UHGV virus genome: UHGV-1509762
Direction: 5' to 3' (one strand)
DNA: 26,449 nucleotides
From: a virus
This document shows positions 186 through 26,449 of the stretch, piece by piece. Numbering within the stretch: position 1 is the stretch's first letter; each line of letters opens with the position of its first letter. The position numbers and the translations under genes were made by a program. The notes under the pieces are model-generated. The model was given only the letters and a program-made list of their open reading frames with translations. It did not search any database and had not been told where the DNA came from.

Positions 186-1166
186 TTATAACGTCACTCC
201 GCCTTTTAGAGGATTCAGTGCGACGGCATTTTGCAGGTAGTCAGGCGCAAGGTGCGCATAGGCCATCGTCTGCTGAATGCTCGCATGTCCCAGAATCTGT
301 TGCAGTGCGATTATATTGCCCCCATTCATCATGAAATGGCTTGCGAATGTATGCCGCAGGATGTGGGTTGCCTGATTGGGTGGTATATCTGGCTTCACTC
401 TGCGTAAAATCCCGCAAAACTTCTCATAATCAACTTTGAATAATTTAGCGCTGGCCTCCTCTTTAACTTTTTTCTCCAGTTCCTCAGAAATCGGCACGGT
501 TCGCTTTTTACCGTTTTTGGTTTTCAGGAAGGTAACCCTGCAATTTGTAATCTGTGCTGGTTTTAGCGTGGCAACTTCCGTCCATCTTCCTCCAGTGCTC
601 AGACATAAAAGTGCGACAAGTAAGTCATCACCATCCAAAACATTTAACAGTTTTTCGATTTCTGCTTTTTCCAGGAACGTCATTTCAGGGTTGGCCTCCG
701 CCAGTGGCGGCAGTCCGTGAATTGGGTGTTGCCCGGAAAATTCATCCAATTGAATTAATTTTGTGAACATGCCGGATAATCGGTACATGTCACGGTTTAT
801 CGTTGCGGCACTGATACCATCACGTAGTCGCATGGAACGATAATCCATCAAAGCTCTTTTGCTCATCCGGCTCACTGGTATATCACCTATGCCGCTGATG
901 GTTTTGAGCAGATGATTAAACTCTTTTGTTCCATGCTCGTGGTTTTGCCCGTGATATTTCCACCAGATGTCCAGCAACTCACTCAAAGTTCTGCGATCTG
1001 CTCGCTGACCTGCCCATTCTTTCTGGCTGGCGTAGGCGATTGTGTATCGCTCAAATGCTACAGCCTCAGCTTTTCTTTCAAATTTCCTGCGGATGCGTTT
1101 TCCGTCGCGACCGCGAGGTCTAATGTCCACTTCATAGCGTCCATCATCGAGCTTCTTAATTGACAT
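186..1166 (-). CDS. int: Tyrosine site-specific integrase (P2 Int-like)
   Basis: 336-aa track ORF with tyrosine-recombinase C-terminal signature (HILRHTFASH ... LGHASIQQTMAYAHL: HxxR box and nucleophile Tyr). Start placed at the internal Met (MSIKKLDDGRYEVDIRP, as I recall the P2 Int N-terminus) because an AGAGGG ribosome-binding site sits 8 nt upstream of the ATG at 1166. Confidence 0.93.
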   Translation of the reverse strand: MSIKKLDDGRYEVDIRPRGRDGKRIRRKFERKAEAVAFERYTIAYASQKEWAGQRADRRTLSELLDIWWKYHGQNHEHGTKEFNHLLKTISGIGDIPVSRMSKRALMDYRSMRLRDGISAATINRDMYRLSGMFTKLIQLDEFSGQHPIHGLPPLAEANPEMTFLEKAEIEKLLNVLDGDDLLVALLCLSTGGRWTEVATLKPAQITNCRVTFLKTKNGKKRTVPISEELEKKVKEEASAKLFKVDYEKFCGILRRVKPDIPPNQATHILRHTFASHFMMNGGNIIALQQILGHASIQQTMAYAHLAPDYLQNAVALNPLKGGVTL

Positions 1167-1235
1167 AAGAAAGCCCTCTGACGCTGTATTCACCATCTTG
1201 GTAACAAATAGTGAAAATGTAATGTTTATAGAGTG

Positions 1236-1529
1236 TTAACCAGTCTGTTTTTCGGAGTGGTCTGATTCTGTTGGTTTTTGCCCAATGTGTGCGAGAGCCG
1301 GCGCGATCTGACCAGCTTGTGGTGACGTATCACCAGTCATTAACCAGAGCGTATATTTTTTAAATAAAGGCGTATTTGTGACTCGCATAACGATGCTGAG
1401 ACCAGGGTCTTTATGCCCACTTTCGTAATTTTTGACTGTTCCTAGAGCTATCCCGCTAATTTCGCTGAATTTCGCCTGTGTTAAGCCTTCTGCTTTCCTA
1501 ATCGCTTTCAGTTTTTCGAATGTCTGCAT
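1236..1529 (-). CDS. C: Immunity repressor (P2 C-like, helix-turn-helix)
   Basis: 97 aa with HTH segment LTQAKFSEISGIALGTVKNYESG and C-terminal SGQIAPALAH motif. Sits between int and the divergently transcribed cox, as in P2. Confidence 0.85.
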   Translation of the reverse strand: MQTFEKLKAIRKAEGLTQAKFSEISGIALGTVKNYESGHKDPGLSIVMRVTNTPLFKKYTLWLMTGDTSPQAGQIAPALAHIGQKPTESDHSEKQTG

Positions 1530-1558
1530 TTGACAGTAACCTATTGGTGACTTATATT
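1530..1558 (+). promoter_or_regulatory. Early rightward promoter (Pe-like): TTGACA, 17-bp spacer, TATATT
   Basis: Seen directly: TTGACA at 1530-1535, 17-bp spacer, TATATT at 1553-1558. It abuts the start codon of the divergent repressor gene and points toward cox (ATG at 1682). Confidence 0.6.
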
Positions 1559-1585
1559 CCCGTCAAAAGGTTGTGTATTGGTGAC
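1542..1585. promoter_or_regulatory. Direct repeats TATTGGTGAC x2 flanking the -10 element; candidate repressor operator half-sites
   Basis: Seen directly: TATTGGTGAC at 1542-1551 (inside the promoter spacer) and at 1576-1585 (just downstream of the -10). P2-type C repressors bind direct repeats flanking the -10 of Pe (established knowledge); assigning these repeats to that role is inference. Confidence 0.45.
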
Positions 1586-1601
1586 CTTTTGAGTGTGTTA
1601 G

Positions 1602-1642
1602 CCAGTCCCTAGAAAGGACAGGGGCGACCTAGAAGGGACTGG
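1602..1642. promoter_or_regulatory. Dyad CCAGTCCCT ... AGGGACTGG in the C/cox switch region; candidate Cox or regulator binding site
   Basis: Seen directly: CCAGTCCCT at 1602-1610 and its reverse complement AGGGACTGG at 1634-1642. The same 9-mer also occurs at 122-130 near the att end. Confidence 0.4.
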
Positions 1643-1681
1643 ATCTAATAAGGGTAACACGAAAGCAAAAAGGGCTAATCA

Positions 1682-1954
1682 ATGGAAGTCAATGACTATG
1701 TGATTCAGTACCCGATTGATGCGGTACATACGGTTAAGTTTGCAGAGTTACTTGGTAAGCCAGAAACGGCTGTAGTCAAGATGGTAAAAGAGAATAAATT
1801 GCCAGTTATTGAGCTTCGTGATCCAAGTAAGCCGAACGCCCGTGTCGGTGAGAAGTGGGTTTTCATTCCAGAGTTTAATCGCGCTGTACGAGAGGCGTTT
1901 TATAACCGACCAGTTGAACAGCGTGATGCATGGCTTTTGTGGATGGGGTTGTGA
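1682..1954 (+). CDS. cox: Cox-like excisionase / early-promoter repressor
   Basis: 90-aa ORF, first gene of the rightward early operon, divergent from C; size and position as in P2 (Cox is 91 aa). The segment KENKLPVIELRDPSK...GEKWVFIPEFN resembles the P2 Cox core as I recall it. Confidence 0.8.
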   Translation: MEVNDYVIQYPIDAVHTVKFAELLGKPETAVVKMVKENKLPVIELRDPSKPNARVGEKWVFIPEFNRAVREAFYNRPVEQRDAWLLWMGL

Positions 1955-1956
1955 TT

Positions 1957-2127
1957 ATGAGTGAACCGCGTTGTATTGCTCAGTTACTGCGTAACGAAAG
2001 CCCCAGGGCGATTGACTTCACCATCACCCACGGTAAGGGGCGTAAGGGAATCATTATCCGCACCAAAAAACAGAGTCCGTTAAAAAAGGCTCTGACCTTT
2101 CTGAAAAGCCGGAGGGTATGGAAATGA
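1957..2127 (+). CDS. Small basic hypothetical protein (positional equivalent of P2 orf78)
   Basis: In-frame ATG at 1957 just after the cox stop; its stop overlaps the B start as ATGA (2124-2127), suggesting translational coupling. No recognisable motif. Confidence 0.4.
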   Translation: MSEPRCIAQLLRNESPRAIDFTITHGKGRKGIIIRTKKQSPLKKALTFLKSRRVWK

Positions 2128-2624
2128 CAGTGATGACGCTCAATCTCGTTGAAAAACAGCCAGCAGCTATGCGCCGGATAATTGGTAAGCATCTGGCCGT
2201 CCCTCGCTGGCAGGAGACATGCGATTATTATAATCAGATGATGGAACGCGAACGGCTAACGGTTTGCTTCCATGCGCAGTTAAAACAGCGTCACGCAACG
2301 ATGCGTTTTGAAGAAATGAACGACGTCGAACGTGAACGGCTGGTTTGTGCAATTGATGAATTGCGTGGGGCATTCTCAAAACGCCGTCAGGTTGGCGCAA
2401 GTGAGTATGCATATATTAGTTTTTTAACAGTCAGTCAGCGTCGTACTTTATTTATGCATGCCGGATTGACTGAAAAAGAATTCAACCAGCCATACTGGCG
2501 AATTAATGAAGAATTATGTTACTGGCGTGATGCTTTATTCCGTGCATTACGTGAATTATTCAGCCTGTTTGAGTATGCACCGACAATTCTGACGTCGGTA
2601 AAACCAGAGCAATATCTGCATTAA
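2124..2624 (+). CDS. B: Replication protein B-like
   Basis: 166 aa from the ATG at 2124 (GGAGGG RBS at 2111-2116, 7-nt spacer); same length and position as P2 gpB. The track's upstream Met at 2118 is too close to the RBS. Confidence 0.7.
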   Translation: MTVMTLNLVEKQPAAMRRIIGKHLAVPRWQETCDYYNQMMERERLTVCFHAQLKQRHATMRFEEMNDVERERLVCAIDELRGAFSKRRQVGASEYAYISFLTVSQRRTLFMHAGLTEKEFNQPYWRINEELCYWRDALFRALRELFSLFEYAPTILTSVKPEQYLH

Positions 2625-2687
2625 GTAATTAACCAGAGTTTTTAACGCACTTAATCGTGCGGGGCTTCTTTTTGCCTGGAGAAAGTC

Positions 2688-2912
2688 ATGCATACAGTTT
2701 CTGAAAATCAGTGCGGTAAATACGCATTACTGCTGCAACAGGCCAGAACCGAAGCACAGGCCGACGCAGCGACGCGCTTTTCTTCTCATCTTGACGCCAT
2801 GATTCGCCACATCACAAAGGCGGAGTTATCCCGCGTGGAGATAGTCGAGCTGCTCAGTCAGGAGTCGGAAAAATTTCACAATATCGGATTGTCTCGCGGG
2901 GAGGTGCTTTGA
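2688..2912 (+). CDS. Hypothetical early protein (P2 orf80 position)
   Basis: 74-aa ORF with GGAG RBS upstream of the ATG, in the conserved cox-B-small ORFs-A early operon. Confidence 0.55.
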
Positions 2913-3214
2913 TGTCCTGTTCTCGTTCAGTTGTATTACTGAATAACGCCTTAAAAATCGCCGTTATGAAAAATGGCGATTTATCTCTTATTCAACTTGG
3001 TCTTGATAAAGAAAAACGCGAAATAACTGAGTCTGTTATCGCGATTTATCAGAACGAATTAAATCTCCTGTCTGATGTGGTCAATTTACTTGTTAAACGC
3101 GCTGTATTTCACAAGAAAATCTCCTCCGTGGATGAACTGACAAAATTAACAACAGAAATTGCCAGCTATTGCGCTGATGAATTTAAAAAACTTAACGACA
3201 AAAGGAGCTGGTAA
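2912..3214 (+). CDS. Hypothetical early protein (P2 orf81 position)
   Basis: 100 aa from the ATG at 2912 (overlapping the previous stop as TGATG; GGGAGGTG RBS at 2898-2905). The track's start at 2909 is a TTG one codon upstream. Confidence 0.55.
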   Translation: MSCSRSVVLLNNALKIAVMKNGDLSLIQLGLDKEKREITESVIAIYQNELNLLSDVVNLLVKRAVFHKKISSVDELTKLTTEIASYCADEFKKLNDKRSW

Positions 3215-3438: not shown

Positions 3439-3710
3439 GTATTCGTATTGAAATTGGCGAACGTTATGTCGTTACCAGTGACAGCTTTCAGTTTATTCTC
3501 CACGAGAAAAAGAGAGCGGAAAGCGGTAAAAACGCCGGTCAGGAATGGCTGGCGGTGGTTGGTTATTACCCGAAATTAAGCCAGCTCGTTTCCGGCCTGA
3601 TGCATCACGATATTCTGACCGGAAGCGCAAAATCTTTTGCTGATTTAAACGCGCAGGTTGAGCAACTCAGCAAGCGTTGTTCAGAGGCTTTTGGCTCACA
3701 TGGACGTTAA
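3435..3710 (+). CDS. Hypothetical early protein (P2 orf83 position)
   Basis: 91-aa ORF, ATG at 3435 overlapping the previous stop, GGAG RBS upstream. Confidence 0.55.
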   Translation: MSIRIEIGERYVVTSDSFQFILHEKKRAESGKNAGQEWLAVVGYYPKLSQLVSGLMHHDILTGSAKSFADLNAQVEQLSKRCSEAFGSHGR

Positions 3711-5973
3711 AGCCTCCGGGCGTTTTGTCCCTCCGTCAGCATTTGCCGCAGGCACCGGTAAGACGTTTACCGGTGCTTATGCATGGAACGCGCCACGCGA
3801 GGCCGTCGGGCGCGAAAGACCCCTTACACGTGACGAGATGCGTCAGGTGCAAGGTGTTTTATCCACGATTAACCGCCTGCCTTACTTTTTGCGTTCGCTG
3901 TTTACTTCACGCTATGACTACATCCGGCGCAATAAAAGCCCGGTGCACGGGTTTTATTTCCTCACATCCACTTTTCAGCGTCGTTTATGGCCGCGCATTG
4001 AGCGCGTGAATCAGCGCCATGAAATGAACACCGACGCGTCGTTGCTGTTTCTGGCAGAGCGTGACCACTATGCGCGCCTGCCTGGAATGAATGACAAGGA
4101 GCTGAAAAAGTTTGCCGCCCGTATCTCATCGCAGCTTTTCATGATGTATGAGGAACTCTGCGATGCATGGGTTGATGCGCATGGTGAAAAAGAATCGCTG
4201 TTTACGGATGAGGCGCAGGCTCACCTGTATGGTCATGTTGCTGGCGCTGCACGTGCTTTCAATATTTCCCCGCTCTACTGGAAAAAATACAGTAAAGGAC
4301 AGATGACCACGAGGCAGGCATATTCTGCCATTGCCCGTCTGTTTAACGATGAGTGGTGGATTAGTCAGCTTAAAGGCCAGCGTATGCGCTGGCATGAGGC
4401 GTTACTGATTGCTGTCGGGGAGGTCAATAAAGACCGTTCTCCTTATGCCAGTAAACATGCCATTCGTGATGTGCGTGCGCGCCGCCAGGCAAATCTGGAA
4501 TTTCTTAAATCGTGTGACCTTGAAAACAGGGAAACCGGCGAGCGCATCGACCTTATCAGTAAGGTGATGGGCAGTATTTCTAATCCAGAAATTCGCCGGA
4601 TGGAGCTGATGAACACCATTGCCGGTATTGAGCGTTACGCCGCCGCAGAGGGTGATTTGGGGATGTTTATCACGCTGACCGCGCCGTCAAAGTATCACCC
4701 GACACGTCAGGTCGGAAAAGGCGAAAGTAAAACCGTTCAGCTTAATCACGGCTGGAACGATGAGGCATTTAATCCAAAGGATGCGCAGCGTTATCTCTGC
4801 CGTATCTGGAGCCTGATGCGCACGGCATTCAAGGATAATGATTTACAGGTCTACGGTTTGCGTGTCGTCGAGCCACACCACGACGGAACGCCGCACTGGC
4901 ATATGATGCTTTTTTGTCATCCACGCCAGCGTAACCAGATTATCGAAATCATGCGTCGCTATGCGCTCAAAGAGGATGGCGACGAAAGAGGAGCCGCGCG
5001 AAACCGTTTTCAGGAAAAACACCTTAACCGGGGCGGTGCTGCGGGGTATATCGCGAAATACATCTCAAAAAATATCGACGGCTATGCACTGGATGGGCAG
5101 CTCGATAACGATACCGGCAGACCGCTGAAAGATACTGCCGCGGCTGTTACCGCATGGGCGTCAACGTGGCGCATTCCGCAATTTAAAACGGTTGGCCTGC
5201 CGACAATGGGGGCTTACCGTGAACTACGCAAATTGCCTCGCGGCGTCAGCATTGCTGATGAGTTTGACGAGCGCGTCGAGGCTGCACGCGCCGCCGCAGA
5301 CAGTGGTGATTTTGCGCTGTATATCAGCGCGCAGGGTGGGGCAAATGTCCCGCGCGATTGCCAGACTGTCAGGGTTGCCCGTAGCCCGTCGGATGACGTT
5401 AACGAGTACGAGGAAGAAGTCGAGAGAGTGGTCGGCATTTACGCGCCGCATCTCGGCGCGCGTCATATTCATATCACCAGAACGACGGACTGGCGCATTG
5501 TTCCGAAAGTGCCGGTCGTTGAGCCTTTGACTTTAAAAAGCGGCATCGCCGCGCCTCGGAGTCCTGTCAATAACTGTGGAAAACTCACCGGTGGTGATAC
5601 TTCGTTACCGGCTCCCACACCTTCTGAGCACGCCGCAGCAGTGCTTAATCTGGTTGATGACAGTGTTATCGAATGGAGTGACCCGGAGGTCGTGAGGGCG
5701 CTCAGAGGTGCATTAAAACACGGTCGGAGAACGCCAAATCGTCAGCAAAGAAACGGAAGCTCGTTAAAACCACATGAAATTGCACCATCGGCCAGACTGG
5801 CCCGGTCGGAACGAATGCAAATTACCCGTATCCGCGTTGACCTTGCTCAGAACGGTATCAGGCCGCAGCGATGGGAGCTTGAGGCGCTGGCGCGTGGCGC
5901 GACCGTAAATTATGATGGGAAAACGTTTTCATATCCGATTTCTGATGGTTGGGCGGGATTTGAAACAAACTAA
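3700..5973 (+). CDS. A: Rolling-circle replication initiator endonuclease (P2 gpA-like, HUH superfamily)
   Basis: About 760 aa; HUH motif (PHWHMMLF, DNA about 4897-4920) and two-tyrosine active-site motif (GYIAKYISK, DNA about 5044-5070). Start set at the ATG at 3700 (MDVKASGRF, like the P2 A N-terminus as I recall); the track's start at 3658 is a TTG. Confidence 0.92.
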   Translation: MDVKASGRFVPPSAFAAGTGKTFTGAYAWNAPREAVGRERPLTRDEMRQVQGVLSTINRLPYFLRSLFTSRYDYIRRNKSPVHGFYFLTSTFQRRLWPRIERVNQRHEMNTDASLLFLAERDHYARLPGMNDKELKKFAARISSQLFMMYEELCDAWVDAHGEKESLFTDEAQAHLYGHVAGAARAFNISPLYWKKYSKGQMTTRQAYSAIARLFNDEWWISQLKGQRMRWHEALLIAVGEVNKDRSPYASKHAIRDVRARRQANLEFLKSCDLENRETGERIDLISKVMGSISNPEIRRMELMNTIAGIERYAAAEGDLGMFITLTAPSKYHPTRQVGKGESKTVQLNHGWNDEAFNPKDAQRYLCRIWSLMRTAFKDNDLQVYGLRVVEPHHDGTPHWHMMLFCHPRQRNQIIEIMRRYALKEDGDERGAARNRFQEKHLNRGGAAGYIAKYISKNIDGYALDGQLDNDTGRPLKDTAAAVTAWASTWRIPQFKTVGLPTMGAYRELRKLPRGVSIADEFDERVEAARAAADSGDFALYISAQGGANVPRDCQTVRVARSPSDDVNEYEEEVERVVGIYAPHLGARHIHITRTTDWRIVPKVPVVEPLTLKSGIAAPRSPVNNCGKLTGGDTSLPAPTPSEHAAAVLNLVDDSVIEWSDPEVVRALRGALKHGRRTPNRQQRNGSSLKPHEIAPSARLARSERMQITRIRVDLAQNGIRPQRWELEALARGATVNYDGKTFSYPISDGWAGFETN

Positions 5974-5987
5974 CAATAATGATTGAC

Positions 5988-6018
5988 ATGCTTGATTTTG
6001 TATTCACAAATCAAGCAT
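5988..6018. repeat. Perfect 11-bp inverted repeat (ATGCTTGATTT / AAATCAAGCAT, 9-nt spacer) preceded by TTGACA; candidate operator or regulatory hairpin upstream of the methyltransferase
   Basis: Seen directly at 5988-5998 and 6008-6018, with TTGACA at 5983-5988. Lies in the gap between gene A and the methyltransferase start. Confidence 0.6.
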
Positions 6019-6084
6019 CAAGTAAACATCGATGATGAGAAAGAACAATGCTACAATCCCCACAGCATTAGAAGGAGGTTTATC

Positions 6085-7134
6085 TTGATTAAGGTTGTTG
6101 ATTTATTCTGTGGCGCGGGTGGCTTGACTCACGGTCTTCAGAAGTCGGGGCTTAATGTAGTTGCAGGTTATGATATAGATGCAGCCTGTCGATTTGCCTA
6201 TGAGACAAATAATAAATCACTCTTTGTCCAGAAAAGTGTTACAGACATTGAGGACGGCGAATTAGTTAAATATTTCGAAGGAGCGAAGGTTCGAGTTTTG
6301 GCTGGTTGTGCCCCATGCCAACCTTTTTCAAGCTATACCAATAGTGCTAAATTAGGGGTAGTACGTTCAAAAGATAAAAGATGGTCTTTGCTTTATAGCT
6401 TTGCTAAGCAAATTAAATTTGCAAAGCCAGATATTATTACAATGGAAAACGTTCCCCGAGTGGTGAATCATAAGGTTTTTAAGGACTTCATTAAGTCTCT
6501 TAAAAATGATGGCTATTTTGTTTGGTATGGGGTGGTGTTTTGTCCAGACTATGGAATGGCACAAAGTCGTTCAAGATTAGTGTTATTGGCATCAAAATAT
6601 GGAGAAATAGAAATAATTCCACCAACTCATGAGAAGAATGATTATAAAACGGTGCGAGATATAATCGGTAATCTTCCTGAAATTAGTGCCGGTGCTGTTC
6701 ACGCTGGAGATAAACTACATCGCTCTGCATCATTATCTGATATTAATATAAAAAGAATAATGGCATCAAAACCTGGTGGAACATGGCGTGATTGGCCAGA
6801 AGAGCTAAGAGCAAAATGTCATACAAAAGAAAGTGGTTCTACATATACTGCTGTATATGGGAGAATGTGTTGGGATAAACTTGGACCGACAATTACAACT
6901 CAATGTATTGGATATGGGAATGGACGCTTTGGGCACCCTGTCCAAAATAGAGCATTAAGTTTAAGAGAGGCTGCGCTATTACAGTCATTCCCAGAAAAGT
7001 ATGAGTTTTGGCCTGATGATGTAAAAATTGAAATGAGAACAGTTGCGCGTTTAATAGGTAATGCTGTTCCTGTTAGGCTTGGTGAGGTCGTAGGTGAAAC
7101 TATTTTAAAACATTTGTCAGAAATGAATATTTAA
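6085..7134 (+). CDS. DNA (cytosine-5)-methyltransferase
   Basis: C5-MTase motifs in canonical order: motif I LFCGAGG (FxGxGG), motif IV GCAPCQPFS (catalytic PCQ), motif VI ENV (ITMENVPRV), motif VIII QSRSR, motif X GNAVPV. Start set at the TTG at 6085 because a GAAGGAGG RBS lies 6 nt upstream and motif I follows within about 10 residues; the N-terminal extension of the track ORF (from 5983, also TTG) is low-complexity. Confidence 0.9.
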   Translation: MIKVVDLFCGAGGLTHGLQKSGLNVVAGYDIDAACRFAYETNNKSLFVQKSVTDIEDGELVKYFEGAKVRVLAGCAPCQPFSSYTNSAKLGVVRSKDKRWSLLYSFAKQIKFAKPDIITMENVPRVVNHKVFKDFIKSLKNDGYFVWYGVVFCPDYGMAQSRSRLVLLASKYGEIEIIPPTHEKNDYKTVRDIIGNLPEISAGAVHAGDKLHRSASLSDINIKRIMASKPGGTWRDWPEELRAKCHTKESGSTYTAVYGRMCWDKLGPTITTQCIGYGNGRFGHPVQNRALSLREAALLQSFPEKYEFWPDDVKIEMRTVARLIGNAVPVRLGEVVGETILKHLSEMNI

Positions 7135-7146
7135 AACTTATGTCAT

Positions 7147-7170
7147 CCCCCCTGTCAAAAAACAGGGGGG
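7147..7170. terminator. Hairpin between convergent genes (CCCCCCTGT / ACAGGGGGG stem, A-rich loop); likely bidirectional terminator
   Basis: Seen directly: 9-bp GC-rich inverted repeat in the 41-bp gap between the methyltransferase stop (7134) and the stop of the minus-strand ATPase gene (7176). Confidence 0.6.
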
Positions 7171-7175
7171 TATAA

Positions 7176-9134
7176 TTAGATTCCCTCAACTATTTTCATA
7201 ATTCTAGCTGCATCATTCTTTTTGTCTTGATATTCAGCATAGGCTTGTTTTGATTGCACGATTAGGTCATTATATGTCAATATTTTTCCATTGATAGAAA
7301 GTAATTGCATATTTATAAAGTGTTGGTTCTCTTGTAAATATCCAGAGCCAACCAGGAATATTACTTCTATATGCGGTATATTTCCACCTGGGCAATTTTT
7401 AGGGTTATTGGAGAACCATTGTGTCGTTGCCTGTACATATTTATTACCTTGTGCGACTAGGTTCATTATATCTGGGTGCACTTTAGGTCGTTTCATCTCA
7501 ATAATTACATGCTTGCCAGAAACGGTTTTGAAAGCGATATCAATACGAGCACCGCTAGCAGCATCAGGGTTTATCTGTTTTAGTTCCTTGGTCAATGTTT
7601 GCTCCATAACAGATGTGCCTGTGACTCTTTCCCATGAAGGATCCAATAACCATAAATGATCATATAAATACATTTGTACAGCTCTTTCAAGCTGATTTTC
7701 ATCAGTTATTTTTTGGAATTTTTCAATTACTTTAAGGCGTTGCGAAGTAATTTCATAAAACATGCTTGCTTCAATGTCATTGACAGATGCAAATACATCT
7801 TTAAAATTTTCTGATTGAAGGTTGCTTATTTTATCTAATGCATCAAGGTTGTCTTGAATTCTAAGTCTTTCAAAGGCTAATACCGTATTTTTTAATACGG
7901 TTTTTCTTGCTGCTTTTTGTTCTTCCTCATTACCAGAAAAACGGAATGTGTTTACTCGTCCAATTAACTTTTCGGCACTTTCTCTCTCATGTTTTTTGAG
8001 AGAATTCAGCCATTCACTTACTATTGGAGTATTGCTTTTAACTTCATTTACTCCTTTTTCGCGTCTCCATTTATCCCAATCTTTATCGATTAGTTGTAGC
8101 GTTCTTTCCAGAAAACCTTTAAGTACAGGGTATCTTGGATCATTCTGTTGTAGTTTTTGACGAGAAGATGTTGCCATATCAGGCTTTTCGTTATCATCTA
8201 GAAAATCGGCGACTATTTCACCGACCAGATAATTGGTGAATACTTTAGCACTTCCAAATTCTAATAATATGTCCTCCTCAAAAACACGTCCGTGAGAGAT
8301 TACAGTAATGCTGTTGTTAGATATTTCAGGGTCTTTCTTTAACTGTGATGGCTTAACTACACTGCCAATGTACCCACTAACTTTTACATCTTTTCCTTCA
8401 AAGGTAATAGTATTTGGTAATATGTTTTTTTGTGTGATGTTTGTGCAGGATTTTATCCTTTCAGGGTCGGATTCGCCAAATTCCCAAATGAACTCGAGAT
8501 CTGAAAGGAAATCTCTATCTGCCGGTGTAATATCGGTCCCATTAATTTTAACTGTAAAGTTATGGTTGGGGCCAATAATGCTAAATCGACGAGCTATTCG
8601 CTTTCTGAGGTAAGTTTGAGTCCTATCAATGGCTTTTTTTAGTTCAAATAATTTAATTGTAGTGCCGTAAGCAAGATTTTCGGGTATTTCAAGGGAGTCA
8701 GCAATATAGTTTTTTGATTCTTTGATACTTTGCTGTAAATCTTTGACATCTACCTCAAAGGCCTGAGGCTGTTCCCCCTTTTTGTACGAATAAACTTGGA
8801 TTTTATTGGCAAGTGAAAACATGGCAAGCTTACCAATACCTTTTCTGCCCATAACTTGACGTTTTAGATGATCGCTTTTGGCTCTTCCATGTTCCCTGCG
8901 AGCATAACCGACTTTTAGGAACTTATTAATAATGTCATCTTTAGACATGCCATGACCATCATCTTTAATGATGACCTCTCCTTTCTCAACATCAAGTGTA
9001 ATTTCTACATTTTGAGCATCTGCATCCCATGCATTTGATATAATCTCAGTTAGTACCGCGGGAGTATTGGAATAGAGACTCATCCCTAGGTGATTTAGCA
9101 CATTCAAATCAATTTTAATTTCGAAATCTGACAT
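7176..9134 (-). CDS. GHKL-family (MORC/MutL/Hsp90-like) ATPase with a C-terminal PD-(D/E)xK-like nuclease motif; putative ATP-dependent restriction or defence nuclease
   Basis: N-terminus carries the Bergerat-fold motifs: N box EIISNAWDADA (E30, N34, D37), G1 box IKDDGHGM (DxGxG), G2 box GRKGIGK. The C-terminal segment ARIDIAFKTVSGKHVIIEMKRPK has a D ... ExK arrangement (D532, E546, K548; DNA 7491-7541) consistent with a PD-(D/E)xK nuclease core. AAGGAA RBS precedes the ATG at 9134. The gene is AT-rich relative to the phage backbone. Confidence 0.85.
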   Translation of the reverse strand: MSDFEIKIDLNVLNHLGMSLYSNTPAVLTEIISNAWDADAQNVEITLDVEKGEVIIKDDGHGMSKDDIINKFLKVGYARREHGRAKSDHLKRQVMGRKGIGKLAMFSLANKIQVYSYKKGEQPQAFEVDVKDLQQSIKESKNYIADSLEIPENLAYGTTIKLFELKKAIDRTQTYLRKRIARRFSIIGPNHNFTVKINGTDITPADRDFLSDLEFIWEFGESDPERIKSCTNITQKNILPNTITFEGKDVKVSGYIGSVVKPSQLKKDPEISNNSITVISHGRVFEEDILLEFGSAKVFTNYLVGEIVADFLDDNEKPDMATSSRQKLQQNDPRYPVLKGFLERTLQLIDKDWDKWRREKGVNEVKSNTPIVSEWLNSLKKHERESAEKLIGRVNTFRFSGNEEEQKAARKTVLKNTVLAFERLRIQDNLDALDKISNLQSENFKDVFASVNDIEASMFYEITSQRLKVIEKFQKITDENQLERAVQMYLYDHLWLLDPSWERVTGTSVMEQTLTKELKQINPDAASGARIDIAFKTVSGKHVIIEMKRPKVHPDIMNLVAQGNKYVQATTQWFSNNPKNCPGGNIPHIEVIFLVGSGYLQENQHFINMQLLSINGKILTYNDLIVQSKQAYAEYQDKKNDAARIMKIVEGI

Positions 9135-9319
9135 ATAGTCGTTCCTTGCTGAGAGTTCATTTTAGTTTCATGCAATCAATAGGTTAGGCTGAAGATAAAA
9201 CCTTAAGATAACCAAAGCAAGTGTTCATTAGCGGCTTTGTTTCATGACATGATGTGTGTCGCTTTTTGCATGAAACTGCATTTGTTTCTTATATCTGCTC
9301 TTTTTACATACTGCTAGTG

Positions 9320-9341
9320 TTGACATGGCTTTGACATGGCT
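9320..9341. repeat. Perfect tandem duplication TTGACATGGCT x2 near cos
   Basis: Seen directly at 9320-9330 and 9331-9341, about 40 bp from the cos cohesive-end sequence. Function unknown: could be promoter -35-like elements or terminase-binding (cosB-like) repeats. Confidence 0.6.
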
Positions 9342-9377
9342 GTGCAACTGCATTAAAACCGCCCCATGAAGCGGGCG

Positions 9378-9396
9378 GGCGAGGCGGGGAAAGCAC
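9378..9396. other. cos site: P2-type 19-nt cohesive-end sequence GGCGAGGCGGGGAAAGCAC
   Basis: Sequence matches the P2 cohesive end as I recall it. It lies about 170 bp beyond the 3' end of the portal gene Q, the same spacing as in P2. Confidence 0.7.
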
Positions 9397-9538
9397 TGCG
9401 CGCTGGCGGTGGTGCTGATTTTATTTTTTCAGCGTCTCAGCGCGTCGTAATGGCGTTTAGATTGTGCGCCGGGGCGTTGGTGTGTCTGCGGGCTGTTTTG
9501 TGCGGTGGTGAGCGTGTGAGGGCGTGATGACGGGGTGT

Positions 9539-9565: not shown

Positions 9566-10600
9566 TCAGCCGTTGTCAGTGTCCAGTGAGTAGTTTTTAA
9601 AGCGGATGACCTCCTGGCCGAGCCAGCCGTTTATTTCCCGAATCCTGTCCTGTAACGGGATTAGCTCATTGCGGACAAAGACCTTTGCCACTTTCTCAAT
9701 ATCGCCCAGTGACCCGACGTTCTCCGGCTTGCCACCCATCAACTGAAAGGGGATGCGGTGTGCGTCCAGCAGGTCAGCGGCGCTGGCTTTTTTGATATTA
9801 AAAAAATCGTCCTTCGTCGCCACTTCACTGAGCGGGATAATTTTAATGCCGTCGGCTTTCCCCTGCGGGGCATAGAGAAACAGGTTTTTAAAGTTGTTGC
9901 GGCCTTTCGACTTCACCATGTTTTCGCGAAGCATTTCGATATCGTTGCGATCCTGCACGGCATCGGTAACGTACATGATGTATCCGGCATGTGCGCCGTT
10001 TTCGTAATACTTGCGGCGGAACAGCGTGGCCGACTCATTCAGCCAGGCAGAGTTAAGGGCGCTGAGATATTCCGGCAGGCCGTACAGCTCCTGATTAATA
10101 TCCGGCTCCAGCAGGTGAAACACGGAACCGGGCGTGAAAGGTGTCGGCTCGTTGAAGGACGGCACCCACCAGTAAACATCCTCTTCCACACCACGGCGGG
10201 TATATTTTGCCGGTGAGGTTTCCAGTCTGATGACCTTACCGGTGGTGCTGTAACGCTTTTCCAGAAACGCATTACCGAACACCAGAAAATCCAGCACAAA
10301 GCGGCTGAAATCCTGTTGCGAAAGCCACGGATGCGGGATAAATGTTGAGGCCAGAATATTGCGTTTGACGTAAATCGGTGAGCTGTGATGCACGGCAGCA
10401 CGCAGGCTTTTTGCCAGACCGGTAAAGCTGACCGGCGGCTCATACCATCTGCCGTTACTGATGCATTCGACGTAATCCAGAATGTCACGGCGGTCGAGTA
10501 CCGGCACCGGCTCGCCAAAGGTGAATGCTTCCATTTTCGGGGCGCTGGCGGTGATTGTTTTTGCCGCTGGCTGCGGTGTTTTCCCTTCTTTCTTGCTCAT
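9566..10600 (-). CDS. Q: Portal protein (P2 gpQ-like)
   Basis: 344 aa, same length as P2 Q; N-terminus MSKKEGKTPQPAAK...FTFGEPVPVLDRRDILDYVEC recognisable; ATGA overlap with the stop of P. Confidence 0.92.
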   Translation of the reverse strand: MSKKEGKTPQPAAKTITASAPKMEAFTFGEPVPVLDRRDILDYVECISNGRWYEPPVSFTGLAKSLRAAVHHSSPIYVKRNILASTFIPHPWLSQQDFSRFVLDFLVFGNAFLEKRYSTTGKVIRLETSPAKYTRRGVEEDVYWWVPSFNEPTPFTPGSVFHLLEPDINQELYGLPEYLSALNSAWLNESATLFRRKYYENGAHAGYIMYVTDAVQDRNDIEMLRENMVKSKGRNNFKNLFLYAPQGKADGIKIIPLSEVATKDDFFNIKKASAADLLDAHRIPFQLMGGKPENVGSLGDIEKVAKVFVRNELIPLQDRIREINGWLGQEVIRFKNYSLDTDNG

Positions 10601-23998: not shown

Positions 23999-24526
23999 AT
24001 GCAGCATTTAAAAAATATTACGGCGGGTAATCCAAAAACGGTTGAACAATATCAATTGACAAAAGACTTTGATGTTGTCTGGTTTTTTTCAGAAGATGGT
24101 AAGAACTGGTACGAAGAACAAAAGTATTTTGCTGATGACACGCTAAAAATAGCGTACGACAAAGATAATATCATCCGCTATGTGGAAAAGGATGTGACAG
24201 CTATCAGACCGGATGGATTAAGTGTTGTTGAAGTGGCGGATATTACTGCTAACCGACGGGCGGACATTTCAGGGAACTGGATGTTTAAGGACGGCAAAGT
24301 GATTAAACGCATTTATACGGCAGAGGAATTGCTGCAGCAGGCAGAAAACCGGAAAGCCAGACTTCTTGCAGATGCTGAATCCGTGATTTTGCCGCTGGAG
24401 CGCGCGGTCAGACTGAACATGGCAACAGATGAGGAGCGTAGCCGACTGGATGCATGGGAGCGTTACAGCGTTCTGGTCAGTCGTGTGGATCCTGCAAATC
24501 CTGAATGGCCGGAAATGCCGCAATAA
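23999..24526 (+). CDS. G: Tail fibre assembly chaperone (P2 gpG-like)
   Basis: 175 aa immediately downstream of H; same length and position as P2 G. Confidence 0.85.
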
Positions 24527-24747: not shown

Positions 24748-25341
24748 ATGTTTACTAAGCGACGATTAAAAAATATTAACTGGGAGGCAAGTTCAGTGAT
24801 TCTTGCTATGGTTCTCTTTGTTGGAAATATATTTTATACAAATCATCGTGATGATATAACTATGGAGGCTGAGAGGGACAGTATCAGAACAATGTTTGCA
24901 TATGAAATCGCTAATAACCATCGCGCTCTCACTTTTCTTGATAAAACGAGATATATTGGCTTTGACGAAAATTCGGAGCATTTTGTTGGCGAGCCTTTTG
25001 CCATTAATGTCAAATCATTAGGGGGGCCTCGCTTACAGATTGCATTAAACCAGACTGATAAAGTGTTTAAATCCTACTTCAGCGAATTAAGTAAGCTTGA
25101 TAAAGAGGATGTTACTCTTCTTATGGACTATTACCATGAGCAAAGCATCCTGCTGGAGCGTGTAAAATCTACGTTACAGAAGATGAAAAGTGGTAATGAT
25201 ATTAAAGTTGATATTGATGGTTACTTATTAGAAGAACACTTCATGAATGAGCTTAATCTTTCTAATATTTTGCTTAAACGCTATAGCCATTTGTTGTCAC
25301 AACACGCCAAAGAACATAAAACAAAAGATTTACATAATTGA
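24748..25341 (+). CDS. Hypothetical membrane-anchored protein of unknown function (cargo gene at the G-downstream hotspot)
   Basis: 197-aa ORF in a visibly AT-rich island; TAAGGTG RBS just upstream of the ATG; N-terminal basic stretch then one hydrophobic helix (SSVILAMVLFVGNIFY), remainder charged. No family recognised. Confidence 0.6.
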   Translation: MFTKRRLKNINWEASSVILAMVLFVGNIFYTNHRDDITMEAERDSIRTMFAYEIANNHRALTFLDKTRYIGFDENSEHFVGEPFAINVKSLGGPRLQIALNQTDKVFKSYFSELSKLDKEDVTLLMDYYHEQSILLERVKSTLQKMKSGNDIKVDIDGYLLEEHFMNELNLSNILLKRYSHLLSQHAKEHKTKDLHN

Positions 25342-25593: not shown

Positions 25594-26449
25594 GGATTTG
25601 CCCCTATATTTCCAGACATCTGTTATCACTTAACCCATTACAAGCCCGCTGCCGCAGATATTCCCGTGGCGAGCGATAACCCAGCGCACTATGCGGATGC
25701 CATTCGTTATAATGCTCGAACGCCTCTGCAAGGTTCTTTGCTGCCGTTAACCCGTCTGGTTTGGGCATGATACTGATGTAGTCACGCTTTATCGTTTTCA
25801 CGAAGCTCTCTGCTATTCCGTTACTCTCCGGACTCCGCACCGCCGTGTTCTTCGGTTCAAGTCCCAACATCCGGGCGAACTGGCGTGTTTCATTAGCCCG
25901 GTAGCATGAACCATTATCCGTCAGCCACTCCAGTGGAGACGACGGAAGATCGTTGCCGAAGCGGCGTTCCACCGCTCCCAGCATGACGTCCTGTACTGTT
26001 TCACTGTTGAAGCCGCCGGTAGTGACCGCCCAGTGCAGTGCCTCACGATCACAGCAGTCCAGCGCGAACGTGACACGCAGTCTCTCTCCGTTATCACAGC
26101 AGAACTCGAACCCGTCAGAGCACCATCGCTGATTGCTTTCTTTCACGGCCACTCTGCCTGTATGTGCCCGTTTCGATGGCGGTACAGCAGGTTTTCGCTC
26201 AAGCAACAGCGCATTCTGGCGCATGATCCGGTAAACACGTTTGGCATTGATCGCAGGCATACCATCAAGTTCTGTTTGTCTGCGAAGCAGCGCCCATACC
26301 CGACGATAACCATACGTGGGCAGCTCTCCGATAACATGGTGTATACGGAGAAGCACATCCGTATCATCAGTGTGACGACTGCGGCGGCCATCCATCCAGT
26401 CATCGGTTCGTCTGAGAATGACGTGCAACTGCGCACGCGACACCCGGAG
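25594..26449 (-). mobile_element. IS2 insertion sequence (IS3 family), partial, inverted orientation, truncated by the window end
   Basis: The terminal sequence TGGATTTGCCCCTATATTTCCAGACATCTGTTATCACTTAA at 25594-25634 is the reverse complement of the IS2 right inverted repeat as I recall it; followed by the IS2 orfB (InsD) coding sequence on the minus strand. Confidence 0.9.
25604..26449 (-). CDS. insD: IS2 transposase OrfB (InsD), 5' end outside the window
   Basis: 279-aa track ORF is recognisable as E. coli IS2 InsD over its whole length ([29 protein letters not shown] ... [33 protein letters not shown]); the true N-terminus and orfA lie beyond 26449. Confidence 0.92.

Follow-up and report, generated by a model that had tools for sequence, protein, structure and literature searches.

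The window examined here, that is, the whole 26,449-nucleotide stretch of the viral genome UHGV-1509762, is a P2-like Escherichia coli prophage. Its genes follow the order integrase, C, cox, B, gpA, a low-GC island, the gpQ portal and the gpP terminase. The island, with a GC content of 35–39% against ca 55%, lies between the gene of the P2 gpA replication endonuclease on the left (3658..5973, plus strand), which is labelled as such in identical records, and that of the P2 gpQ portal protein on the right (9566..10600, minus strand), named 'portal vertex protein GpQ' in Escherichia phage PhiR44_1. It carries two genes, one for a C5 DNA cytosine methyltransferase and one for a restriction endonuclease, and this restriction-modification (R-M) pair is cargo in the variable gpA-cos-gpQ hotspot.

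The P2 cohesive-end sequence, GGCGAGGCGGGGAAAGCAC, is found at 9378..9396 on the plus strand. The 19-nt query, which we take to be the P2 cos, matches there at 19 of 19 positions, with 0 matches expected in shuffled sequences. The exact cos at this position shows the nuclease gene to lie in the gpA-gpQ slot next to cos. A promoter scan of the segment from cos to the ATG of the nuclease gene gave no convincing candidate, the promoter-like sites there not rising above those in shuffled sequences.

The methyltransferase gene occupies 6085..7134 on the plus strand and encodes 349 amino acids when read from the start used in PhiR44_1, where the gene is called 'Dcm'. The longest open reading frame for the methylase begins at a TTG at position 5983. 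The product matches Pfam DNA_methylase (PF00145) at 1.3e-55 and the PADLOC model MTase_II at 3e-88. The methylase and nuclease genes are convergent, with 41 nt between their stop codons. In this gap a GC-rich hairpin with a 9-bp stem, CCCCCCTGT / ACAGGGGGG, can be read from the sequence at 7147..7170. It may serve as a bidirectional terminator, and since it has no U-tract it is not a canonical intrinsic one.

The restriction endonuclease gene is an uninterrupted frame of 652 codons plus a stop codon, with an ATG start, at 7176..9134, as read from the window sequence. The initial annotation had proposed a 652-residue protein between these positions, in which a GHKL ATPase is fused to a C-terminal nuclease-like motif; the frame is borne out, and it lies on the minus strand. 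That annotation passed over the named family to which the protein belongs (BbrUII/HgiDII), the cognate methylase next door and the fact that the middle domain can be named.

The family assignment comes from several sources. Against NCBIfam NF050001, 'BbrUII/HgiDII family restriction enzyme', an equivalog model with a curated cutoff of 550 bits, the protein scores 751.4 bits, and the alignment covers the full length, with residues 4–651 on positions 1–658 of the 659 in the profile. The PADLOC type II REase model PDLC03419 (REase_II) matches at 2e-91. RefSeq gives the label 'BbrUII/HgiDII family restriction enzyme' to copies with 100% identity in complete E. coli genomes, and their neighbours are labelled 'DNA cytosine methyltransferase' and 'replication endonuclease'. 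In PhiR44_1 (PV340563.1), where the region is 99.9% identical, the gene is called 'ParaMORC3', and PHROGs still files it under 'unknown function'. The 652-residue protein is a restriction enzyme of a known, already annotated kind, and as a family it is nothing new.

The same family has in fact been described three times, as HgiDII/BbrUII in REBASE and NCBIfam, as paraMORC3 by Aravind and colleagues, and as Shedu type I-D. Iyer, Abhiman and Aravind (2008) defined paraMORC3 as GHKL and S5 domains followed by a C-terminal restriction-endonuclease-fold nuclease with an E-D-ExK motif, mostly in R-M contexts, and noted that stand-alone paraMORC3 genes exist and that paraMORCs are without the MORC-specific motif. 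The window protein agrees with paraMORC3 in architecture, R-M context and sporadic lateral spread; we found no difference, and it appears to be the same family. By this description it is a paraMORC and not a true MORC. For R.HgiDII, the N-terminal GHKL domain was noted in 2008, the C-terminus being unassigned at that time. The GHKL-DUF4263 proteins were later filed as Shedu type I-D (Gu et al., bioRxiv).

The two enzymes for which the family is named, R.HgiDII from Herpetosiphon and R.BbrUII from Bifidobacterium breve UCC2003, could be compared with the window protein by means of the NF050001 profile. They share with it the full-length match to the family model, the domain order with GHKL at the N-terminus, and a C5 methyltransferase as partner. 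The difference lies in the setting, since here the host is E. coli and the carrier is the hotspot of a P2-like prophage.

Residues ca 1–150 of the protein (8685..9134, minus strand) constitute a GHKL (Bergerat-fold) ATPase domain. Pfam HATPase_c_3 covers residues 26–149 with an E-value of 2.3e-25, which is far beyond chance. The GHKL signatures are present at exactly the residues given in the initial annotation, namely EIISNAWDA with E30, N34 and D37 (motif I), DDGHGM at 58–63 with D58, G60 and G62 (motif II), and GRKGIGK at 96–102, that is, G96–K102 (motif III). Motif IV, G157-T158, is located just past the domain boundary. The ATPase call is upheld by the HATPase_c_3 match together with the invariance of the active-site residues discussed below and Foldseek matches to Hsp90 and TRAP1.

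The latter were obtained with a full-length AlphaFold2 model, built from 40 relatives and having a mean pLDDT of 79.9. Residues 1 to ca 330 of the model align with the N and M domains of Hsp90, TRAP1 and GRP94, over ca 390–450 columns and with E-values of about 1e-12, among them 4e-13 for Hsp90/TRAP1. The middle of the protein, some 400 residues, had been described as having no motif that could be named, a statement that has to be revised. The match to the Hsp90-family N and M domains identifies part of this region as the usual GHKL transducer (Hsp90-middle/S5-like), and the AlphaFold2 model shows a helical linker after it. The transducer is a beta-rich domain of residues ca 151–330 (8145..8684, minus strand), as seen from the predicted secondary structure and Foldseek. 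GHKL and transducer modules dimerise upon ATP binding in MutL, Hsp90, topoisomerase II and MORC. Residue 283 is basic throughout the set of 85 sequences described below, being lysine in 64 and arginine in 21 of them, and is a possible gamma-phosphate sensor. Gu et al. (bioRxiv) refer to an 'N24' middle domain in GHKL-Shedu proteins.

The linker, residues ca 331–478 (7701..8144, minus strand), consists of long helices at 334–475 that are predicted with lower confidence, the pLDDT being 44–68 around residues 440–510. It may function in dimerisation or as a DNA-clamp arm.

The remaining part, residues ca 479–652 (7179..7700, minus strand), is a PD-(D/E)xK nuclease domain of the Shedu (SduA_C) type. 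Sequence-profile searches of this C-terminal domain against PDB sequences, run with the whole domain, with an 85-residue core and with a trimmed 99-column profile, gave nothing significant. The best Shedu match in these searches was 8ps4 at a non-significant E-value of 0.31, among PPR and EVH1 false positives, and a comparison at the level of the fold was therefore needed. Since the full-length model matched only Hsp90-family structures when folds were compared, residues 470–652 (183 amino acids) were modelled separately, with a pLDDT of 84. The two best PDB matches to this model are both E. coli SduA (8ps5_A, E-value 4e-6, and 8ps4_A, 7e-5), and the next ones are SfsA, EndoMS/NucS, Card1, the FokI cleavage domain and EcoO109I.

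The nuclease motifs can be assigned as E483 and/or E511 for motif I, D532 for motif II, E546-x-K548 for motif III and Q562, with Y566, for motif IV. The residues proposed in the initial annotation are correct, IDIAF being located at 531–535 and IIEMK at 544–548, which gives D532, E546 and K548. E. coli SduA (8ps4/8ps5) and Bacillus cereus Shedu (8ti8/8ti9) are the best structural match to the C-terminal domain and have the same arrangement of motifs I–IV. These proteins differ, however, in their unrelated N-terminal sensors and in being DNA-end-sensing tetramers without an ATPase or a methylase partner.

At the level of Pfam the picture is more divided. The window protein itself has no match to SduA_C (DUF4263, PF14082) at E≤1, whereas 7 of the 40 relatives do match, and for the Proteus ortholog, which is 68% identical, the profile aligns as a whole to residues 484–627 with 28.1 bits against a gathering threshold of 27. 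Taken with the fold match and the invariance of the residues, the Proteus match upholds the assignment of D532, E546 and K548 as motifs II and III of a PD-(D/E)xK domain. A C-terminus in a non-nuclease fold had been named beforehand as the outcome that would speak against a nuclease; the fold that was found is a nuclease fold, and the interpretation stands.

Both active sites are strictly conserved. D532, E546 and K548 are invariant in the 40 relatives, which have 44–82% identity. In a more distant set of 85 sequences with 34–43% identity, drawn from many bacterial phyla and archaea, the invariant residues on the ATPase side are N34, D37, D58, G60, G62, G157 and T158, and those on the nuclease side are E483, E511, R530, D532, E546, K548, Q562 and Y566. 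The invariance of E30 and of residues 95–102 in this set is biased, because the loci had been retrieved with peptide patterns that include both. The invariant nuclease residues correspond to the motif I–IV scheme proposed for Shedu (Gu et al., bioRxiv). It should be pointed out that a short D...ExK motif can occur by chance, but the combination of invariance and a modelled fold like that of a solved nuclease means that the motif is real here.

The link between the nuclease and a methylase was examined in a sample of 80 distantly related loci from many bacterial phyla and archaea, found by means of peptide patterns. A C5 methylase is present in the flanks of 68 of them, and in 59 of the 80 it is an ortholog of the window methylase (at least 43% identical over more than 300 residues, with a range of ca 43–58%). 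The orthologous methylases are better conserved than the nucleases at the same loci, for which the identity is 34–43%. Most of the 59 lie less than 100 bp from the nuclease gene, usually immediately upstream and on the same strand. The order methylase-then-nuclease in tandem, seen in most distant loci, contrasts with the convergent arrangement in the window. The flanks of the other 12 loci gave no methylase match, the upstream flank being incomplete in at least 4 of these 12.

Among the 59 orthologs, the target-recognition region of the methylase (residues ca 215–325) is as conserved as the catalytic motifs, which argues for one shared recognition sequence. M.HgiDII and M.BbrUII both methylate GTCGAC to give m5C, and this sequence is favoured for the present system because it is the site of the named family members HgiDII and BbrUII. 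From the family name and the methylase orthology across taxa, we infer that the recognition site is most likely GTCGAC. The window contains 4 GTCGAC sites, too few to judge whether the site is avoided.

The cassette is also found outside E. coli. In P2-like prophages of Proteus mirabilis it occupies the same portal-R-M-gpA slot, and in a P2-like prophage of Pasteurellaceae it is located in a different slot, again in the convergent arrangement. The methylase and the nuclease move as a unit between slots of P2-like prophages. Among 5426 complete E. coli genomes, 30 (ca 0.5%) have the full cassette. The gpA-gpQ slot, which holds old and tin in P2, was shown by Rousset et al. (2022) to be an anti-phage hotspot; the present cassette appears there only in a supplementary table of arrangements, without mention in the main text.

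Considering these results together, we find it very probable that the nuclease serves as the R subunit in a type II R-M cassette of two genes, which resides in the hotspot of a P2-like prophage. The C5 methyltransferase would mark the DNA of the host and of the prophage, presumably at GTCGAC. The 652-residue enzyme probably acts as a homodimer, in which D532, E546 and K548 of the Shedu-type PD-(D/E)xK domains would carry out the cleavage of incoming DNA that is not methylated. The GHKL and transducer domains would form an ATP-operated clamp or gate that either loads the DNA or licenses the nuclease. Here, the Bergerat fold and transducer, common to MutL, Hsp90, MORC and topoisomerase II, suggest an ATP-driven dimerisation of the N-terminal part. 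The earlier view of the gene as encoding an effector that cleaves DNA, rather than a protein of phage structure or replication, is judged to be right as a predicted function. As to the strength of the restriction, pre-methylation by M.BbrUII gave no individual boost in one transformation screen, unlike pre-methylation by M.BbrUI and M.BbrUIII, and restriction by the named relative BbrUII may therefore be weak in vivo.

A further comparison is that with VcSduA, a GHKL-Shedu protein of Vibrio cholerae. It defends against T1-like phages, and the defence is abolished by either of the substitutions E27A in the ATPase and K557A in the nuclease. The two proteins have in common the GHKL ATPase, a middle domain resembling a clamp and a PD-(D/E)xK nuclease of the DUF4263 type. 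On the other hand, VcSduA acts as a single gene, no methylase being reported for it, and the spacing from the glutamate of the ATPase to the lysine of the nuclease is 530 residues, compared to 518 in the window protein. A homolog from V. cholerae with 61% identity (P0047) was considered as a candidate for the published VcSduA and was rejected, as its spacing is 518 and not 530. The contig with this homolog stops at the gene.

The example of VcSduA raises the question of whether the window nuclease, too, could be a stand-alone Shedu type I-D enzyme, with a GHKL domain that responds to some sign of infection and not to methylation, the Dcm-like neighbour being unrelated or orphan cargo. The nuclease domain is indeed of the Shedu type, a protein of the same architecture defends as a single gene, lone paraMORC3 genes are on record (Iyer et al. 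2008), and no methylase match was obtained for 12 of the 80 loci. However, the partner is an orthologous methylase in 59 of the 80 scattered loci, mostly directly adjoining and better conserved than the nuclease itself, the pair shifts together between slots of P2-like prophages, and NF050001 is named for two enzymes of R-M systems. The locus is thus not that of a single-gene, modification-independent Shedu system, the methylase linkage being conserved. This linkage indicates, as far as can be judged from sequence, that the protein works like an R-M nuclease, and we regard the stand-alone alternative as quite improbable. A role in repair or DNA compaction like that of MutL or MORC, or a chaperone-like GHKL protein in which the D...ExK is fortuitous or degenerate, might be suggested by the weak sequence matches to HtpG and MutL and by the Hsp90-family structures that dominate the full-length fold search. 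Yet these matches span the N-terminal GHKL and middle domains only, the C-terminus has a nuclease fold in which all four PD-(D/E)xK motifs are invariant, and the family model that matches over the full length is one of restriction enzymes. It can be added that MutL, Hsp90, MORC and topoisomerase II share the Bergerat fold and transducer with the window protein and are without a fused PD-(D/E)xK nuclease of this type. We consider this last explanation extremely improbable.

A further option is that the cassette is mainly a selfish addiction module, which would stabilise the prophage by post-segregational killing and for which defence would be secondary. Type II R-M pairs are in general capable of such killing, and the low-GC, mobile nature of the cargo, present in several prophage slots, would fit with it. 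Addiction is, however, compatible with defence and not separable from it here, and the locus is on record as a hotspot of anti-phage systems. That addiction is the main role is, in our judgement, unlikely.

Within the preferred R-M interpretation, the role of the ATPase deserves a separate comment. The invariance of the ATPase residues across phyla and the E27A result, which shows VcSduA to depend on its ATPase, speak for the importance of this domain. One can speculate that the large methylase-linked clade of GHKL-Shedu/paraMORC3 proteins, with the window protein among them, consists of ATP-gated, sequence-specific restriction enzymes. In these, binding or hydrolysis of ATP by the conserved GHKL clamp would be required for loading on DNA and for licensing the Shedu-type nuclease at unmethylated GTCGAC. 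We put this forward tentatively, as a reasonable possibility that falls somewhat short of being probable.

The chief value of the present findings is one of annotation, in that one further R-M cassette can be added to the P2 gpA-gpQ defence hotspot. In the E. coli genomes that carry it, the cassette may restrict incoming phages and plasmids. What stands out is a strictly conserved GHKL ATPase in a family that is filed as orthodox type IIP restriction endonucleases. If the ATP-gated reading is true, the 'type IIP' HgiDII family would form a class of its own, NTP-dependent and with a different mechanism. In that case DNA would also be what the GHKL domain reads in type I-D Shedu, rather than the misfolded proteins that have been suggested (Gu et al., bioRxiv).

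The nuclease gene at 7176–9134 (−) matches phrog_6203 over its full length with an E-value of 1e-283, and while this PHROGs family carries the label "unknown function", the NCBIfam label is that of a restriction enzyme. The difference in naming between phrog_6203 and NCBIfam is thus an annotation gap between the two databases.

The stop codons of the convergent methylase and nuclease genes are separated by a gap of 41 nt, in which a perfect GC-rich hairpin of 9 bp, CCCCCCTGT-caaaaa-ACAGGGGGG, is located at 7147–7170. The sequence at the hairpin shows no flanking U-tract, and the hairpin may stop the convergent transcription. Next to the nuclease gene, the annotation of the Escherichia phage PhiR44_1 contains two small ORFs called "hypothetical protein", one at 9228–9353 (−) and one at 9366–9527 (+). 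The latter overlaps both the exact cos site (9378–9396) and a terminator-like hairpin, and it is therefore doubtful as a gene and probably not a real one.

We now turn to the partners of the methylase. Plasmid-borne orthologs with 48–52% identity to it (H48, NC_008762.1; H54, NZ_CP021355.1; H41/H71, NZ_CP047217.1) were found to adjoin different nucleases. In Polaromonas and Rhodococcus the plasmid gene beside the methylase encodes a "MAE_28990/MAE_18760 family HEPN-like nuclease", and in Campylobacter coli it encodes a GHKL protein with just 26% identity to the window enzyme. It seems that several restriction partners occur with one and the same methylase type.

The number of nuclease genes also varies, and in some of the distantly related loci a single methylase is followed by two to three tandem or nearby paralogous GHKL-nuclease genes. 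The copies are located at 3784–5730 and 6001–7986 in L009, at 3534–5480 and 6001–7962 in L011, and at 1131–3041, 6001–7923 and 9115–11025 in L025, and L030 is also listed among the loci with paralogous copies. One MAG chromosome, that of an "uncultured Cenarchaeum sp." (OY282369.1), holds at least five separate GHKL-nuclease loci (L025, L030, L036, L052 and L060), at most of which an adjacent methylase match is absent.

The tail-fibre assembly gene (Caudo_TAP, 23999–24526) is followed by a low-GC ORF of 197 aa (24748–25341 (+), ca 36% GC). The full length of this ORF is covered by a match to phrog_3829 ("unknown function"), and it gave no Pfam or PADLOC match. After it, at the window edge, comes an IS-type transposase (rve, rve_3 and HTH_21; 25604–26443 (−)). 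It looks as if the P2-like prophage has a second variable locus here, with the ORF and the transposase as its cargo.

Finally, the relatives of the nuclease with 50–68% identity (L082–L086) all lie within P2-like prophages, and their slots differ. The slot adjoins the CI repressor in V. cholerae (L082, GCA_026766275.1), it is the portal/gpA interval in Proteus mirabilis (L083/L084), and in Pasteurellaceae-like metagenome contigs (L085/L086) it is flanked by the immunity region on one side and tail gene D on the other. It seems that the cassette hops, visiting variable loci of the P2-like phage family.
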